Source of the DNA: Acidobacteriota bacterium
GTDB lineage: Bacteria; Acidobacteriota; Terriglobia; Acidiferrales; UBA7541
Direction of reading: 5' to 3'
DNA length: 64,000 nucleotides
Assembly: GCA_003223215.1 (NCBI GenBank)
Contig: QHYH01000091.1
Span: 60,696-124,695, forward strand
This document shows positions 3,606 to 49,741 of this stretch, one piece after another; positions within the stretch are counted from its first letter, which is position 1, and every line of letters starts with the position of its first letter. The notes under the pieces were generated by a model. The model was not told the origin of the DNA, ran no database searches, and saw nothing but the letters and a program-made list of their open reading frames with translations. A program made the position numbers and the translations under genes.

Positions 3606-5318
3606 ATGAAAATCGGGTTCGGGATTAGCCGCACAGCGGGGCGAATCGCTACATTCTGGCTTCTCTTGCGGCTTTTTGGCCCACTAGAAGTTCCCGCGCA
3701 ATCTTCGAACGCCGACTTGCTTCTTCTTAATGCCCACGTGGTGACCATGAACGAGAAGCAACCCTCCGCGCAGGCCATCGCTATCCGGGGCGGGCGCATC
3801 CTTTGGGTCGGCAACACTGAGGAAGCGGAGCGCCTCTATCCGCGGCCCGCTCACGCCATGGATCTTCACGGCGCAACGGTCCTGCCCGGCATCATCGACG
3901 CCCACGCCCACTTGATTAATCTCGGCCAGAGTCTTGTCCGGCTGAATCTCAAAGACATTCCCACGGAGAAAGAAATCATCGAGCGGGTCAAGCAGCGGGC
4001 CGCCTCGACCGCGCCCGACGAATGGATTCTCGGCTGGGGCTGGGATGAAGGCAAATGGGCCTCGCATTACCCGACCAAAGAAGCTCTGAGCGCGGCCACG
4101 CCTAACAATCCCGTGTTTCTCGTTGGCCTCCACACGTTTGCCGCGTGGGCCAATCAACGCGCCCTGGAACTCGCCGACATCGACAAAAACACCAAGGACC
4201 CGGAAAACGGAAAAATCCTACGCGACGAGAAAACCCGAGAGCCCACAGGCATCCTGCTCAACCGTGCCCAGGACCTAGTCGCGAGGCACATTCCGCCGAT
4301 GACCCTGGCCCAAACGAAGCGCGCCATGCAGCTCGCAGCCAGCGAGTGCGTCCGCAACGGCTTGACTTCCGTCGACGAAGCCAGAGTCACGCCTCTCATG
4401 GTCCAGGCATTTCACGAATTAGTACGGGACGGGCAGATGCCCCTGCGCGTTTATGCCATGCTCGATGGCGCGGACAAGGATCTTGTTGAACGGTGGCTCA
4501 AGCGCGGGCCGGAAATCGATCCACATCATCAACTGACCGTGCGTGCATTCAAGCTTTTTGCCGATGGCGCGCTCGGCTCGCGCGGTGCCGCGCTTCTCGA
4601 ACCGTATAGCGACGCTCCCCAAACCCAAGGCATCATGACCACGCCGGAGTCCGAGGTTTACAGTTTGACGCGCCGTGCTCTCGAGGCTGGCTTTCAACTT
4701 TGCACGCATGCCATCGGCGACGCTGCGAACCGCGCCGTGCTCAACGCCTACGAACAAGCGGAAAAGGAGGTGCCCAATGCGCATGATCCGCGTCTGCGCA
4801 TCGAGCACGCGCAAGTGCTCGCACCGGAGGATATTCCGCGCTTTGCGAAACTCGGCGTCATTGCTTCGATGCAGCCTACGCATTGCACTTCCGACATGGC
4901 CTGGGCAGAGCAGCGCCTCGGTCCGGAGCGCGTTAAGTACGCCTACGCCTGGCGCTCGGTGAAGGATTCCGGGGCGCACTTGCCGCTGAGTTCGGATTTT
5001 CCCGGCGAAACGCTCAACCCGTTCTATGGAATCTATGCAGCCATTACGCGACAGGACCCGCAGGGTAATCCGCCAGGCGGCTGGCATCCCGAGCAGAGGC
5101 TCACGCGCGAAGAAGCCCTGCGGGGTTACACCCTTGAGGCGGCTTATGGGGAGTTTCAAGAAAACAACAAGGGTTCGCTCGAAAAAGACAAACTGGCCGA
5201 TTTGACGGTCGTCTCGAAAGACATCACGAAAATCCCGCCAGCGGAGATTCTCTCCGTCCAGGTGCTGAAAACCTTCGTCGGCGGCAAAGTGGTCTACGAC
5301 CTAGGCGCCCATCAGTAA
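3606..5318 (+). CDS. Amidohydrolase-3 family (YtcJ-like) metal-dependent hydrolase with signal peptide
   Basis: PGIIDAHAH, KLFADGALGSRGAAL, THAIGD, RIEHAQ and SSDFP motifs. Confidence 0.9.
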   Translation: MKIGFGISRTAGRIATFWLLLRLFGPLEVPAQSSNADLLLLNAHVVTMNEKQPSAQAIAIRGGRILWVGNTEEAERLYPRPAHAMDLHGATVLPGIIDAHAHLINLGQSLVRLNLKDIPTEKEIIERVKQRAASTAPDEWILGWGWDEGKWASHYPTKEALSAATPNNPVFLVGLHTFAAWANQRALELADIDKNTKDPENGKILRDEKTREPTGILLNRAQDLVARHIPPMTLAQTKRAMQLAASECVRNGLTSVDEARVTPLMVQAFHELVRDGQMPLRVYAMLDGADKDLVERWLKRGPEIDPHHQLTVRAFKLFADGALGSRGAALLEPYSDAPQTQGIMTTPESEVYSLTRRALEAGFQLCTHAIGDAANRAVLNAYEQAEKEVPNAHDPRLRIEHAQVLAPEDIPRFAKLGVIASMQPTHCTSDMAWAEQRLGPERVKYAYAWRSVKDSGAHLPLSSDFPGETLNPFYGIYAAITRQDPQGNPPGGWHPEQRLTREEALRGYTLEAAYGEFQENNKGSLEKDKLADLTVVSKDITKIPPAEILSVQVLKTFVGGKVVYDLGAHQ

Positions 5319-18503: not shown

Positions 18504-19145
18504 TCATTTCCGCCTACCAGGGTGAGATTCCGGCTTGGCCTTAGGCGTTGCTTCATTCAGGAATTCTTTTTCCTCTTCTTCCTCTGCGCGGTCTTCCGGT
18601 CCTTTTGGATTGTAGCGTTCCATCTCGAGCCGTTCCGCCTCGCTCAAATGACGGAGATGCCGGATGAAATGCACCAGCTTCCAACTGTCTTGTCCATTGC
18701 CGTGATTCCCAGCCCCGTTATGCTGGTTGCTGGAAAATGCCGGCATGCCGGTAAACCGCACTCCGTTCTCGATAATCCAGAACAGTTCGCCGTCGCTCAA
18801 GTTCTGCGTCGCCGGCAGCCGCAGATCGGGGGGTTTAGGATAAAGTCCCTCGCCGATTGGCGTGTCGCCGCTGCCGTCATTCCCGTGGCAAATCGCACAA
18901 TGATCGGCAAAGTGCAGCCGCGCTTCGCGCTGTATTTCCGGCGAATCCAACACGGGGTTCTCCATCAGGCGCGCATTTCCGGGGATTGCCAGGTGGCGCG
19001 CGTTACGTGCTACAAACGCTTCCAGGCGCGTCGGCGTCGCCTTGGCGCTCAAGCCATCGTGCAATACCGAGACGGCAATGGCAATCGCCAGAGCCATGCC
19101 GACCAGCACGAGGCCGATCAAGATCACGAGTGTGCTGCGTTTCAT
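18504..19145 (-). CDS. Membrane-anchored monoheme c-type cytochrome
   Basis: N-terminal TM, CAICH heme motif, SDGELFWIIENGVRFTGMP. Confidence 0.9.
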   Translation of the reverse strand: MKRSTLVILIGLVLVGMALAIAIAVSVLHDGLSAKATPTRLEAFVARNARHLAIPGNARLMENPVLDSPEIQREARLHFADHCAICHGNDGSGDTPIGEGLYPKPPDLRLPATQNLSDGELFWIIENGVRFTGMPAFSSNQHNGAGNHGNGQDSWKLVHFIRHLRHLSEAERLEMERYNPKGPEDRAEEEEEKEFLNEATPKAKPESHPGRRK

Positions 19146-19209
19146 AAGAAAAGAGCTGGTTAGAAGGGCGCGCTGTCGTTGCGGCCAAGGCCGCTTGGCC
19201 ACCCATTAC

Positions 19210-19424
19210 CAGGTGGGTCGTAAAACCTCGGCGTTTTTAGGCCGAGGATATAAGGCCCCTCTTTGTTTTCCTTCCGAACTGCTCTATATTTCTGTCCGAA
19301 CGACCTATGGGCGGGTCCTCCGCTGAAGTAGGGCGGTTGTGGGAGGAACCCACCGAAGCCATCTCGGGAAAACAAACCGAGAGGCCGTAGGAATCCTCGC
19401 CGCTTGCGGCGGGGAGGATGTCAA
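19210..19424 (+). mobile_element. Non-autonomous IS200/IS605 (IS608-like) mini-element, copy 1
   Basis: Preceded by TTAC; left hairpin CCTCGGCG-TTTTTA-GGCCGAGG; right end GAAT-CCTCGCCGCTTGCGGCGGGGAGG-ATGTCAA; no plausible coding ORF; second copy at 48035-48278. Confidence 0.9.
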
Positions 19425-19441
19425 AGATACAAACAGATCTT

Positions 19442-21061
19442 TCAGTGGTGGGCCGTAGCCGTAGCTGCCGCACCGCTCCAAAACTCGTAGCGGTCGCGGT
19501 GCGCTTGCGGGAGGGCCTGAATTTGTTCCGCAAAATGCATCATCATGGGATCCGCTCCACCGTCATAGACCGGCCATTTCGCCAGGCCCGGCCCGTTCGG
19601 GTCTCCCGCCTTTGTAAAATTCGCCCAATACGAAGCCATGGCATCGGAAATCTTGAAGTCCGCACTCTCCCAGGGGTTCGGCTGTGACTTCAGCGTGCCA
19701 AAGACATATTCAATCTCGCAGGCATGCCGGGCGCCGAGCTCCTTCGGAGAGATTCCATTAACCTTGGTATCCGGCGCGACCGGCGGAGTGCGGTCAAACA
19801 CGTAGCCGTAGACCGGCGCCTGCCCGGTTTTATTCTGCATTTCCAGCCATGCCCACGTGATGTATACGATAAACAGGTCGCTTGCCAGGTCGATCGCCGA
19901 CTTGTGCGCTTCTTCATCGTTGCTGGCGGGATACAGCTTCAGGATCTCCGCCGATCGGTCGTCAAACCGCGCGCGCAGTTGTTGCGGAAAAGTATGCGCG
20001 GTCGGCTTTTCTTTCGCGTAGACCACCGCCCAGCTTGCTTCCTCGGCGTTCCAACCTGCCAGCAGCGGCACGTGGGCCTGCCCGCCTTCCACAAAAATCG
20101 CGGCTACCTCTTTCGGCAGCACATAGCCGTCCACACTTGGCCAGAACTGTAACGAGCGGTCCTTTTGCGCCGCGTTCAGAAGGTCTTCCGCACCCTTCGC
20201 GTGCAGTGCCGCGAGGTCGTTCGCGCCAAGGGCTTCCGCAAATTTCGCGCCGGTCTTTTCCGTTTCGCCGAGCGTCGGCATCGCCGACCCCGCTGGCGGG
20301 CGCCCAAAGAAAGCGCCGCTCTCTCCTATCGCCAGACGAAACAATCCCTTGGCGAGCGGCGAGGCCATCAGGGCGCTGACCGAGAGCGATCCTGCCGACT
20401 CGCCCGCGATGGTCACTTTTTCCGGGTCGCCTCCAAAGGCGGCGATATTTTGCTTCACCCAGCGCAAGCCCGCGATCTGGTCCATCAGACCGTAATTTCC
20501 TGATGCATGGACGCCCGATTCTTTGGTCAACTCCGGGTGAGAAAAAAACCCGAGTACGCCCAGCCGGTAATTGAGGCTGACAACGATGATCCCTTTCTTC
20601 GCGAAATTCTCGCCGTCATAGCGCGGCTCGGAGCTCGATCCGGCCTGAAATCCGCCGCCGTAAAACCACACCATTACCGCGAGGCGGTCCTCGGCCGATT
20701 TTGCCGCCGTCCAGACATTCAGGTACAAGCAATCCTCGCTCATGGGCTTGTCCGCCCGGTCGCGGAAAATCATGTCTGAAAAAACTGGTGCCTGCATGCA
20801 GCGCGGCCCGAATCCACCGGCCTTCAGAACGCCCTTCCAGGGCCTAACGGGTTGCGGCGCCTTCCAGCGCAATTCTCCGATGGGCGGCGCAGCAAAAGGA
20901 ATCCCGCGAAAGGCGCGGACTGCTGGCGAGGCCGCCCTCACGCCCTCCACGATTCCGCTGGTCGTCTTCACCTGGTCATCCGCAAACGTGGCCCCCGCGA
21001 ACGGCATCAGCAGCAATCCAGCCAACGCCGCCATGCGCGCTCGGCCCTTACCTCGCGTCAT
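19442..21061 (-). CDS. Type-B carboxylesterase (pNB esterase-like)
   Basis: FRGIPFAAPPIGELRW, SEDCLYLNVW, YGGGF, GESAG, HACEIEYVFG; signal peptide. Confidence 0.93.
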   Translation of the reverse strand: MTRGKGRARMAALAGLLLMPFAGATFADDQVKTTSGIVEGVRAASPAVRAFRGIPFAAPPIGELRWKAPQPVRPWKGVLKAGGFGPRCMQAPVFSDMIFRDRADKPMSEDCLYLNVWTAAKSAEDRLAVMVWFYGGGFQAGSSSEPRYDGENFAKKGIIVVSLNYRLGVLGFFSHPELTKESGVHASGNYGLMDQIAGLRWVKQNIAAFGGDPEKVTIAGESAGSLSVSALMASPLAKGLFRLAIGESGAFFGRPPAGSAMPTLGETEKTGAKFAEALGANDLAALHAKGAEDLLNAAQKDRSLQFWPSVDGYVLPKEVAAIFVEGGQAHVPLLAGWNAEEASWAVVYAKEKPTAHTFPQQLRARFDDRSAEILKLYPASNDEEAHKSAIDLASDLFIVYITWAWLEMQNKTGQAPVYGYVFDRTPPVAPDTKVNGISPKELGARHACEIEYVFGTLKSQPNPWESADFKISDAMASYWANFTKAGDPNGPGLAKWPVYDGGADPMMMHFAEQIQALPQAHRDRYEFWSGAAATATAHH

Positions 21062-42067: not shown

Positions 42068-42115
42068 GGAGCGGCTCAGGAGAAGGCGGGCGAGAGGTTT
42101 CGGATCCTGCCTTGC

Positions 42116-42156
42116 CATGTGGGCCGTAAAGCCTCGGCGTTTTTAGGCCGAGGATA
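42116..42156 (+). mobile_element. Solo left end of the IS608-like mini-element
   Basis: CATGTGGGCCGTAAAGCCTCGGCGTTTTTAGGCCGAGGATA nearly matches the left ends at 19210 and 48278; no right end follows. Confidence 0.85.
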
Positions 42157-42163
42157 TGGACGG

Positions 42164-48034: not shown

Positions 48035-48278
48035 GTGAACATCCTCCCCGCCGCAAGCGGCGAGGATTCCTACGGCCTCTCGGTTTGTTTTTCCGAGATG
48101 GCTTCGGTGGGTTCCTCCACAACCGCCCTACTTCAGCGGAGGACCACGAAGAGGCTTTACTTTTGGGCTGCCCGCCCATAGGTGGTGCGGACAGAAGAAA
48201 TAGAGAGCAGTTCGGAAGCAAAGAAAGAGGGGCCTTCTATCCTCGGCCTAAAAACGCCGAGGCTTTGCGGCCCACCTG
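48035..48278 (-). mobile_element. Non-autonomous IS200/IS605 (IS608-like) mini-element, copy 2
   Basis: On the minus strand TTAC|CAGGTGGG...AAAG-hairpin...GAAT-hairpin-ATGTTCAC; close match to copy 1 with about 29 nt extra internally. Confidence 0.9.
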
Positions 48279-48292
48279 GTAAGTTCCTGCTT

Positions 48293-49741
48293 ATGGACCT
48301 TCGCATCCTCAACGAATTCCGCTCGATCGTCGGCAACGGTGGCCTCATCTGCTCGCCTGAGGAACTGCACACCTACGAATGCGACGGCCTTACGAATTTC
48401 CGCGTACTGCCCCGCGCGGTCTTGCTTCCGTCTTCGACCGCGCAAGTTCAGTCCATAGTGCGTCTGTGCCATCGCGAAAGAATTCCTTTCGTCGCACGCG
48501 GTTCGGGCACGGGCCTTAGTGGCGGTGCCTTGCCTGTCGCAAACGGCATTGTCCTCAGCCTGGCGCGCATGAATCGCATCCGCGAGGTGGACATTCCGAA
48601 TGCGCGTGTTGTCGTCGAGCCGGGAGTCATCAACCTGGACGTCACCGGGCGCGTCCAGTCCCAGGATTATTTCTACGCACCCGATCCTTCTTCGCAATCG
48701 GTTTGCAGCATTGGCGGCAACGTCGCGGAAAACGCCGGCGGCGCGCATTGCCTCAAATACGGCTTCACCACCACGCATGTCCTCGGCCTGGAAGTCGTTC
48801 TTCCCGACGGCTCGCTCGTCCATCTCGGCGGGAAAACGCTCGATACGCCCGGCTATGACCTTGTCGGCGTTTTTGTCGGCTCCGAAGGCACCCTCGGCGT
48901 GGCCACGAAAATCATTCTGCGCATCGTCAAGCGCCCCGAATGCGTTCGCGCGCTGCTGGCTGCGTTTCCGACCACCAACGAGGCGGGCGCGGCTGTCAGC
49001 GGCATCATCGCCGCGGGGATGCTGCCCGCCGCCATCGAAATGATGGACAAGCTCGCGATTCAGGCCGCGGAAGCCGCTGTCCACGCGAACTATCCCGATT
49101 GCGGCGGGCTGCTTCTGGTCGAACTCGACGGCCCACTTGGCGAAGTCGAAGCGCTCATGACCCAGGTCGATGAAATTTGCCGTTCAAACGGTGCTTGGGA
49201 AATTCGCGTCGCGCAATCCGAAGCCGAGCGCGCGCTCGTCTGGAAAGGCCGCAAAGCTGCTTTTGCCGCGGTTGGCCGGATCTCTCCGAACTACATTGTT
49301 CAGGACGGCGTAATTCCCCGCACCGCTCTTCCCCAGGTGATGGGCGAAATCGCACGGCTCAGCCGAGAAAACGGCTTGCGCGTTGCCAACGTTTTTCACG
49401 CTGGCGACGGCAATCTCCATCCGCTGGTTCTGTACGATCGCCGAATCCACGGGCAGGAAGACGCCGCCCTCGCGCTCTCCTTCAAGATTCTGGAAGTCTG
49501 TATCGCCGCCGGCGGCTCCATCACCGGCGAGCACGGGGTCGGCGAAGAGAAAAAATGCATGATGTCCAAAATGTTTGCCGAGCCCGATCTCGCCACCATG
49601 CAGCGGGTCCGCTGCGCCTTCGATCCCTTGCAACTCTCGAATCCTACGAAAGTTTTCCCCACGCCGCGTCTCTGTGGCGAGAAGCCCGGCGAATATCTGC
49701 CCCACCCCGTCGAATCCGCGGGTCTCGCGGAGCGCTCTTAG
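48293..49741 (+). CDS. glcD: Glycolate oxidase FAD-linked subunit
   Basis: RGSGTGLSGG, APDPSSQ, GNVAENAGGAHCLKYG, HAGDGNLHP, GEHGVG. Confidence 0.93.
   Translation: MDLRILNEFRSIVGNGGLICSPEELHTYECDGLTNFRVLPRAVLLPSSTAQVQSIVRLCHRERIPFVARGSGTGLSGGALPVANGIVLSLARMNRIREVDIPNARVVVEPGVINLDVTGRVQSQDYFYAPDPSSQSVCSIGGNVAENAGGAHCLKYGFTTTHVLGLEVVLPDGSLVHLGGKTLDTPGYDLVGVFVGSEGTLGVATKIILRIVKRPECVRALLAAFPTTNEAGAAVSGIIAAGMLPAAIEMMDKLAIQAAEAAVHANYPDCGGLLLVELDGPLGEVEALMTQVDEICRSNGAWEIRVAQSEAERALVWKGRKAAFAAVGRISPNYIVQDGVIPRTALPQVMGEIARLSRENGLRVANVFHAGDGNLHPLVLYDRRIHGQEDAALALSFKILEVCIAAGGSITGEHGVGEEKKCMMSKMFAEPDLATMQRVRCAFDPLQLSNPTKVFPTPRLCGEKPGEYLPHPVESAGLAERS

Follow-up and report, generated by a model that had tools for sequence, protein, structure and literature searches.

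Positions 19210–19424 of a 64,000-nucleotide (nt) stretch of DNA from an Acidobacteriota bacterium (GenBank contig QHYH01000091.1, positions 60,696 to 124,695 of the forward strand; this whole stretch is referred to as the window) carry a small mobile element, subsequently called copy 1, that contains no protein-coding gene. It is best explained, with a probability of roughly three in four, as a non-autonomous copy of the IS200/IS605 family that comes from an IS605-type parent, has kept an omega-RNA scaffold and is used in trans by TnpA and TnpB. The inferred mechanism, in all its steps (TnpA in trans, scaffold transcript, TnpB homing), is as follows. The parent would have been an IS605-type element with a Y1 tnpA gene divergent from tnpB, and loss of both genes would have left the left end, a short spacer and the final ~150 nt, in which the 3' end of the parental tnpB and the right end together make up the omega-RNA scaffold. 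A TnpA of the TTAC/AAAG type, acting in trans, would recognize both hairpins in single-stranded DNA, peel copies out and paste them. The scaffold would be transcribed, possibly from an internal −10-like box, with the RNA reading into the flank. TnpB encoded elsewhere would then load this RNA and, after excision, cut the scarless vacated site (TTAC plus flank), whereupon recombination would restore the copy (homing).

A first-pass annotation, made from the sequence alone, had described copy 1 as a coding-free IS608-like mini-transposon with an omega-RNA-type right end, and had proposed that such units form a dispersed, self-reprogramming guide library. That description is partly supported: the identity of the element is right, its activity is a proposal and the guide library is overstated. 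All of the sequence features that it named for 19210–19424, including the pairings GTGGG/CCCAC and CTCGG/CCGAG, are found where it placed them. The features of copy 1 are:

19206–19209, + strand: TTAC, target and left cleavage site, outside the element (the upstream flanks of other copies end in TTAC; the left cleavage site, CL, of IS608 is TTAC; PMC5934647)
19210–19424, + strand: copy 1, non-autonomous IS200/IS605 element (palindrome-associated transposable element, PATE, or miniature inverted-repeat transposable element, MITE), 215 nt, no protein-coding gene
19222–19225, + strand: left DNA guide tetranucleotide AAAA, AAAG in most family members (family-wide guide/target covariation)
19226–19247, + strand: left subterminal hairpin CCTCGGC-GTTTTTAG-GCCGAGG, a perfect 7 bp stem directly 3' of AAAA (compensatory variants elsewhere)
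19285–19290, + strand: TATATT, candidate −10 box of a putative internal promoter for the scaffold
19302–19424, + strand: omega-RNA-type scaffold, a long-range helix CCUAU/GUAGG around internal hairpins plus the right-end hairpin (covariance model R1, 125 bits; RNAalifold; covariation; fold z = −4.1)
19314/19315, + strand: junction of a 27 nt deletion relative to the family, which has removed the 3' half of the stem of hairpin 1 together with a conserved linker, GCAGCCCAAAAGTAAAGCCTCTTCGTG (alignments)
19358–19385, + strand: variable hairpin GCC-A-TCTCGG...CCGAGA-GGC, the helix with most covariation
19391–19394, + strand: right DNA guide tetranucleotide GAAT (the right guide, GR, of IS608 is GAAT; PMC5934647)
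19395–19417, + strand: right subterminal hairpin CCTCGCCGCTTGCGGCGGGGAGG (covariation of helix 7; sub-threshold match to Rfam HgcC)
19421–19424, + strand: TCAA right cleavage site, the final four bases of the element, whose end reads ATGTCAA (flanks of other copies diverge at 19424/19425; the right cleavage site, CR, of IS608 is TCAA)
19425–19444, + strand: flank AGATACAAACAGATCTTTCA, would-be guide if a scaffold transcript runs on (by analogy with TnpB/omega-RNA biology)

Element boundaries and target site

The first bases of copy 1, from 19210, are CAGGTGGG. Four soil DNA metagenomes contain the window, and in these many contigs with unrelated flanks join the element exactly at 19209/19210 and 19424/19425, the upstream loose ends at the left junction finishing in ...TTAC. 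Copy 1 lies between two minus-strand genes, 17 nt from the stop codon of a carboxylesterase gene (19442–19444), which the flank at 19425–19444 overlaps, and 62 nt from the start of a cytochrome c gene (19147). This esterase–cytochrome c synteny is kept in relatives named Candidatus Acidoferrum or Acidobacteriota. Where the esterase is 97% identical (L124–L127; loci are cited by number) the site is occupied by the element. Four more distant relatives are element-free (esterase identity 92% for L131, 88% for L132 and about 85–87% for L133 and L128), and their intergenic DNA is gaplessly colinear with the window once exactly the 215 bases of 19210–19424 are removed. At the joint, the window minus the element reads GATCTGTTTGTATCT-GTAA-TGGGTGGCCAAGCGG and L131 reads GATCTGTTTGTATTT-TTAA-TCGGTGGCCAAGCGG. 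The empty site can be reconstructed as TTAC plus the 19425–19444 flank, and neither TTAC nor the AGAT on the other side of copy 1 is repeated, so that there is no target-site duplication. The gapless empty sites, which the first-pass annotation had suggested looking for in relatives, therefore demonstrate precise insertion 3' of a tetranucleotide. No joint that skips 19210–19424 was seen in the four DNA metagenomes holding the window, such alleles being confined to the more distant relatives.

DNA guides and subterminal hairpins

The published signals of IS608 are TTAC (CL), AAAG (left guide, GL), TCAA (CR) and GAAT (GR) (PMC5934647), and the consensus signals of the family to which copy 1 belongs are identical to these. 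In full-length and gene-less relatives alike, the left guide, made up of the four bases that precede the left hairpin, and the target at the left junction change together:

Left guide AAAA, target TTAT: L118, L031, L071
Left guide AAAT, target TTAA: L090, L013
Left guide CAAA, target TGAT: L106, L015
Left guide AAAG, target TTAC: L035, L080, L020 and most gene-less copies
Left guide CAAG, target TGAC: the gene-less branch L029, L036, L111, L116

These pairs are the DNA-guide rule of the IS200/IS605 family seen as natural variation. Two exceptions occur, with the guide CAAG at TTAC in one case and AAAG at TGAC in the other (L053/L076 and L088); they reflect either mutation after insertion or misjudged boundaries. 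The left hairpin itself varies in a compensatory manner in other copies (CCTCGCC/GGCGGCG, CCCCGGC/GCCGGGG) and is presumably the structure that TnpA recognizes in single-stranded DNA. The right hairpin of copy 1 follows GAAT with the arms CCTCGCCGC...GGCGGGGAGG. Left and right ends are thus distinct imperfect palindromes in subterminal positions on the same strand, and terminal inverted repeats are absent, as is typical of IS200/IS605 elements. The TTAC at 19206–19209 would, by analogy with known TnpB systems, also serve as the transposon-associated motif (TAM) of the putative cognate TnpB. Together with the precise insertion, the cleavage and guide tetranucleotides bear out the description of copy 1 as an IS608-like mini-transposon.

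As a short, GC-rich, hairpin-bearing intergenic repeat of high copy number, the element has the outward appearance of a repetitive extragenic palindrome (REP) or REP doublet (REPIN) mobilized by a REP-associated tyrosine transposase (RAYT), and REPINs too are hairpin repeats that occur in many copies and are mobilized in trans by an HUH Y1 enzyme. The architecture of the ends contradicts this reading, which is scarcely credible here: there is no inverted REP doublet, and instead a left end and a right end share one strand, each with its own hairpin, a 5' guide tetranucleotide and TTAC/TCAA sites. Moreover, the same ends flank elements with tnpA and tnpB, and the link is to these genes rather than to a RAYT.

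Family size and distribution

The 24 nt left end and the 34 nt right end of copy 1 both recur within the 64 kb window at three or fewer mismatches, where none is expected (100 shuffles), so the recurrence is not due to chance. The further occurrences are:

48036–48278, − strand: copy 2, full-length family member, 243 nt, scaffold intact (R1, 168 bits)
42112–42157, + strand: solo left-end fragment, 46 nt, consisting of TTGC followed by CATGTGGGCCGTAAAG, the hairpin and GGATAT, where the similarity ends

In the four soil DNA metagenomes the flanks of the element are covered 5–25-fold and sequence words from the element 220–2200-fold, which corresponds to about 55–80 copies per genome-equivalent, with many distinct junctions. 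In a set of 185,579 species genomes, an exact 26-mer from the right end was matched by no more than three contigs; each of these belongs to an Acidobacteria metagenome-assembled genome (MAG), and all hold gene-less copies of about 240 nt. With a looser right-end pattern (GTAGGAATCC, hairpin, GGAGGATGTCAA) more than 120 metagenome contigs were matched, which fall into two groups. The first consists of ~20 distinct loci with gene-less copies of the same subfamily as those in the window, and the second of many loci in which the right end directly follows an open reading frame (ORF) of 400–450 amino acids. The family therefore shows the multiple dispersed copies, with shared ends and different flanks, by which non-autonomous IS200/IS605 elements are recognized. 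Three loci that were considered as parents (L036, L111, L083) were rejected, since the long ORF upstream of each belongs to the host and the element itself is a gene-less copy.

The right-end scaffold

The right part of the element is, as judged by comparative sequence analysis, an omega-RNA-type scaffold whose structure is conserved through compensatory changes even in gene-less copies. The GACCTAT-to-TCAA stretch of 18 distinct gene-less copies, drawn from many metagenomes, was aligned (MAFFT-based) and folded with RNAalifold. The consensus consists of a closing long-range helix (CCUAU/GUAGG), three short hairpins, a long variable hairpin and the right-end hairpin. It contains 34 pairs, 12 of which show compensatory changes, for example GGGC/GCCC replaced by CGCC/GGCG or GGCC/GGCC. 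The spacer beside the scaffold varies freely among the copies.

The covariance model R1 was built from this alignment. In the window it finds only copy 1 (125 bits) and copy 2 (168 bits), and the folds of both are more stable than those of their own shuffles (z = −4.1 and −3.0, respectively). Despite its deletion, copy 1 still has the closing helix, the variable hairpin and the right-end hairpin. Elsewhere, R1 positions 1–150 match the 3' end of TnpB genes, which are Pfam-confirmed in L048, L113 and L010, and they match likewise at L038, L015, L013 and L090, where TnpB-like ORFs were read by eye. Bit scores at TnpB-linked right ends are 68 for L038, 64 for L015, 61 for L013 and L090, and 59 for L113. 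The right 123 nt of copy 1 therefore match, across the whole model, the tnpB 3'-end/right-end region in which omega-RNAs are encoded.

Among 70 sequences matched by R1 (alignment A3), 87.9% of the cells in paired columns can pair, a level that none of 500 shuffles reaches (67.4% paired), although A3 was fitted to R1, which inflates the pairing somewhat; the MAFFT-based RNAalifold result agrees in direction. Controls in which the partner was slid along give 44–51%. Pairs that change on both sides number 25, and five of the seven helices are 92–97% paired. In the variable hairpin (helices 5 and 6; 92–96% paired) every pair has changed on both sides, and in the right-end hairpin (helix 7; 95%) six pairs have done so. 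Strong covariation of this kind among the copies, and the end-to-end R1 match at tnpB 3' ends, support the omega-RNA interpretation of the right end.

The internal helices might alternatively act at the level of DNA, folding the single-stranded transposition intermediate or binding TnpA, with no guide-RNA scaffold involved. Single-stranded DNA hairpins are used in IS200/IS605 transposition (PMC5934647; PMC10055086), and the two subterminal hairpins are certainly DNA signals. Three points nevertheless make this reading improbable for the internal helices. Transposition of IS608 is reported to need only short subterminal ends; the parental counterpart of the region lies inside or after tnpB, where omega-RNAs are encoded; and on the sense strand there are 197 G–U cells against 81 A–C cells, an excess that favours an RNA of this strand.

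The GTGGG/CCCAC pairing of copy 1, which had been read as one of its internal hairpins, was rejected as a conserved helix, only 47% of its cells being paired family-wide. In L124, positions 4138–4260 differ from window positions 19302–19424 by two substitutions in or beside hairpin 2 (GAAGTAGGGCGG vs GAAGCAGGACGG); one of these replaces a U–G pair by U–A and so keeps the pairing.

Related elements with tnpA and tnpB

Four of the ORFs that precede related right ends were scanned and are TnpB: all four contain the Pfam domains OrfB_IS605 and Cas12f1-like_TNB, and three contain HTH_OrfB_IS605. At least 12 TnpB loci encode a Y1 transposase in divergent orientation to tnpB. A Y1 TnpA adjoins the same right end in L118, L031, L035 and other loci, and the protein of L118 carries the motifs DHVHLLV and SPSYFAGSCGG. 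L020 and L080 are tnpB-only elements of 1.2–1.4 kb with the same left end, TTAC followed by an element beginning CA and carrying the AAAG guide and hairpin. At locus L134 of the Acidobacteria MAG GCA_003225635.1 a matching right end comes after a TnpB gene, and a left-end-like sequence there is similar to the left end of one branch of the mini-elements. This left-end-like sequence lies upstream of the TnpB gene (L134 1100–1500), with a degraded hairpin and an apparent decayed remnant of tnpA. L134 is a tnpB element in the process of becoming non-autonomous. In the source record the TnpB gene of L134 is labelled 'cytosine methyltransferase'.

The first-pass annotation had made its case depend on a parent with matching ends. 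Such ends accompany Y1 TnpA and TnpB at many metagenome loci and, in an Acidobacteria MAG, TnpB, but within the window no parent is present (see below). In a comparison of differential coverage, contigs like L038, a tnpA/tnpB element, occur in the same sequencing runs as the window, at depths of ~3, 5, 13 and 4 compared with 5, 9, 11 and 16–25 for the window, and do not track it.

Transcription

In metatranscriptome X28, words from the right end are covered at a depth of 110–185, those from the scaffold at 15–45 and those from the left end at 0–10. Left and right ends are about equally deep in the DNA runs. A 155 nt RNA contig from metatranscriptome X26 coincides with the scaffold of copy 2 (48039–48183). 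The ends of the scaffold could not be read from the ends of RNA contigs, and this approach was rejected, since contigs of multi-copy sequence break where the copies diverge.

In 10 of 20 distinct copies a box of the form TANNNT, of which TATATT is the version in copy 1, begins 17–25 nt before the scaffold, a frequency reached by only six of 2000 shuffles. The box sits within the otherwise variable spacer. For the proposal that TATATT is a −10 box the result is divided: the fixed position in half of the copies favours it, and a strict scan of 19100–19500 for sigma-70 promoters and terminators gave no site. Transcription of family members is likely, and a discrete guide RNA running 15–20 nt past TCAA is a candidate only, as the RNA contigs carry neither strand nor true ends.

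Condition of copy 1 and probable role of the guide

Several observations weigh against the interpretation of copy 1 as a trans-used omega-RNA carrier, and they concern the RNA data, the partner enzymes and the state of copy 1 itself. Besides the negative promoter scan and the inflated pairing in A3, the RNA runs were available as assembled contigs of multi-copy sequence, and some of these contigs span entire copies together with their flanks; carry-over of DNA may contribute to the signal. Neither tnpA nor tnpB was found in the 64 kb window by tblastn with 27 candidate ORFs that lie beside related right ends (~20 of them TnpB) and with a Y1 TnpA. The only echo is a stretch of 17 amino acids from the TnpB C-terminus, located inside both copies and not significant. 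Among the elements found, no TnpB-linked one has a scaffold of the mini-element's own subfamily; the best TnpB-linked R1 score is only 68 bits, whereas the window copies reach 125–168 bits, copy 2 being the first training sequence of R1. None of the elements found therefore stands out as the source of the cognate TnpB.

Copy 1 is in addition mismatched by the family rule, with the guide AAAA at TTAC, which should impair cleavage of its left end. It also lacks 27 nt of scaffold that are present in copy 2 and in nearly all relatives; at 19314/19315 DNA and RNA contigs of other copies depart with ...GTAAAGCCTCTTCGT. Both the AAAA guide and the 27 nt deletion are shared by the 97% relative L124, which gives copy 1 the appearance of an old insertion, fixed and probably impaired for excision. 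It is probably a fixed and degraded family member, which may be neither mobile nor a good guide RNA, and for copy 1 itself the two defects may make homing irrelevant.

Such defects, both fixed in the lineage, would also suit an inert relic, in which a burst of dead deletion derivatives has kept its right part by recent common descent, with no RNA function and no TnpB partner. Copy 2 ends in the non-canonical bases GTTCA instead of GTCAA, a solo left-end fragment exists, and tnpA and tnpB are missing from the window, all of which fit the same history. This alternative is nonetheless unlikely for the family, as the helices are kept by compensatory changes in 12 pairs among gene-less copies next to a freely varying spacer, and metatranscriptomes favour the right part over the left end.

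The preferred explanation, a scaffold used in trans for homing, has a precedent in the homing role that was shown for TnpB (Meers et al., 2023; PMC10055086). Such a role would account for the retention, in copies without genes and through compensatory changes, of ~100 nt of structure that is dispensable for transposition itself. It also bears on the dispersed guide library of the first-pass annotation, in which a TnpB or a nuclease-dead, TnpB-like regulator would act at loci beyond the vacated site of each element. The high copy number per genome-equivalent with a different flank for each copy, the location of copies beside gene starts and ends (62 and 17 nt for copy 1, 14 nt for copy 2) and the existence of domesticated TnpB regulators (PMC10705468) speak for such a library. 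However, each guide matches only its own flank, where the element parts the TAM from the target, and neither TnpB nor dead TnpB was seen. With no TAM-adjacent target while the copy is in place, the guides are more plausibly self-policing homing guides, each matching only its own vacated site in keeping with published homing. Self-homing is thus likelier than a guide library, which goes beyond the evidence and is given very little weight.

By a bolder extension, which is regarded as a long shot, gene-less omega-RNA mini-elements would be the main guide carriers in these Acidobacteria and would far outnumber tnpB, with a few TnpB or TnpB-derived proteins programmed in trans by 50–100 loci that have their own scaffold subfamily and promoter, possibly for purposes beyond self-homing. 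If true, these might include the cutting of mini-element-free alleles that arrive by recombination, or the regulation of adjacent genes.

Relation to known systems

IS608 (ISHp608) of Helicobacter pylori shares with the mini-element the four signals, a guide 5' of each subterminal hairpin and insertion 3' of the target without duplication. The mini-element differs from it in lacking tnpA and tnpB, in its size (215–243 nt vs about 1.8 kb), in its Acidobacterium host and in a sequence similarity that is limited to motifs. Furthermore, the related full-length elements have tnpA and tnpB in divergent orientation, a layout that belongs to IS605 and ISDra2 rather than to IS608.

PATEs are gene-less fusions of left and right ends of the IS200/IS605 family, and PATE-derived RNA is transcribed in Halobacterium (PMC4615843). 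For one such RNA, VNG_R0052 of Halobacterium salinarum, a right-end tetraloop motif provides a link to Rfam HgcC (Gomes-Filho et al., 2015; PMC4615843). In Geobacillus stearothermophilus, PATE-like elements are reported to encode omega-RNAs that depend on a TnpB supplied in trans (Meers et al., 2023; PMC10055086). The mini-element is likewise a gene-less fusion of a left and a right end, and PATEs have been reported as transcribed or as omega-RNA-encoding. In contrast to them, it belongs to a different phylum and sequence family, has a ~150 nt scaffold with documented covariation as well as a candidate internal promoter, reaches a very high copy number, and is known from sequence alone.

With the TnpB omega-RNAs (reRNAs) of ISDra2 and ISGst it has in common the right-end position, the parental overlap with the 3' end of tnpB and a structured scaffold followed by a flank-derived guide. 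The TAM of these systems is the transposon target site, as is expected for the mini-element. The mini-element differs in having no adjacent tnpB, in having transcript ends that are only putative and in matching no curated Rfam family at threshold.

The right-end hairpin with GGAGGAxGUCA resembles the 3' part of HgcC (RF00062; compare the sense overlapping transcript RNAs, sotRNAs, of IS1341-type tnpB genes), and HgcC has been linked to IS1341-type right ends in the literature (PMC4615843). The scores are 23–32 bits (22.9 for copy 1, with TnpB-linked relatives alike) against a gathering score of 50, and HgcC is archaeal. Copy 2 gave no HgcC match up to an E-value of 1. At gathering thresholds the Rfam scan of the whole window was empty, and in permissive mode it returned only sub-threshold HgcC and SscA; the mini-element therefore does not belong to a curated Rfam family.

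That PATEs encode omega-RNAs for TnpB in trans is already published (PMC10055086). What is new is the family itself, with its Acidobacteria hosts, own scaffold subfamily, high copy number and candidate internal promoter. The findings leave current understanding unchanged. They provide a well-bounded natural case of a gene-less IS200/IS605 element under selection for a guide-RNA scaffold, and they support the published view of TnpA, TnpB and omega-RNA as modular trans-acting parts, which is extended to Acidobacteria, a phylum that is abundant in soil and has been little studied. The five natural left-guide/target pairs and ~20 scaffold variants are a resource for TnpB–RNA recognition. The covariance model can be used to annotate such repeats in soil MAGs, where they fragment assemblies and may be mistaken for small-RNA genes.

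Other copies and neighbouring genes

The left end of copy 2 adjoins a glcD-like FAD-oxidase gene, with TTAC at 48279–48282 (− strand). The ATG of this gene (MDLRILNEF...) is at 48293, 10 nt past the TTAC and 14 nt from copy 2, so that its promoter and 5' leader must lie in or beyond copy 2. The solo left end at 42112–42157, which has no right part, is probably what is left of a copy that was otherwise deleted; the genes on either side of it are convergent and 96 nt apart.

At L046 a family member lies directly downstream of an IS110-type transposase-like gene rather than tnpB, as read by eye from C-terminal sequence only. The arrangement suggests that unrelated mobile elements have inserted into or beside one another.

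Positions 19179–19200, a short way upstream of where copy 1 inserted, contain a short inverted repeat (GGCCAAGGCC/GCTTGGCC), which is kept in the element-free relatives L131, L132 and L128. This repeat may belong to the original esterase–cytochrome c intergenic region, as a terminator or as a regulatory hairpin.

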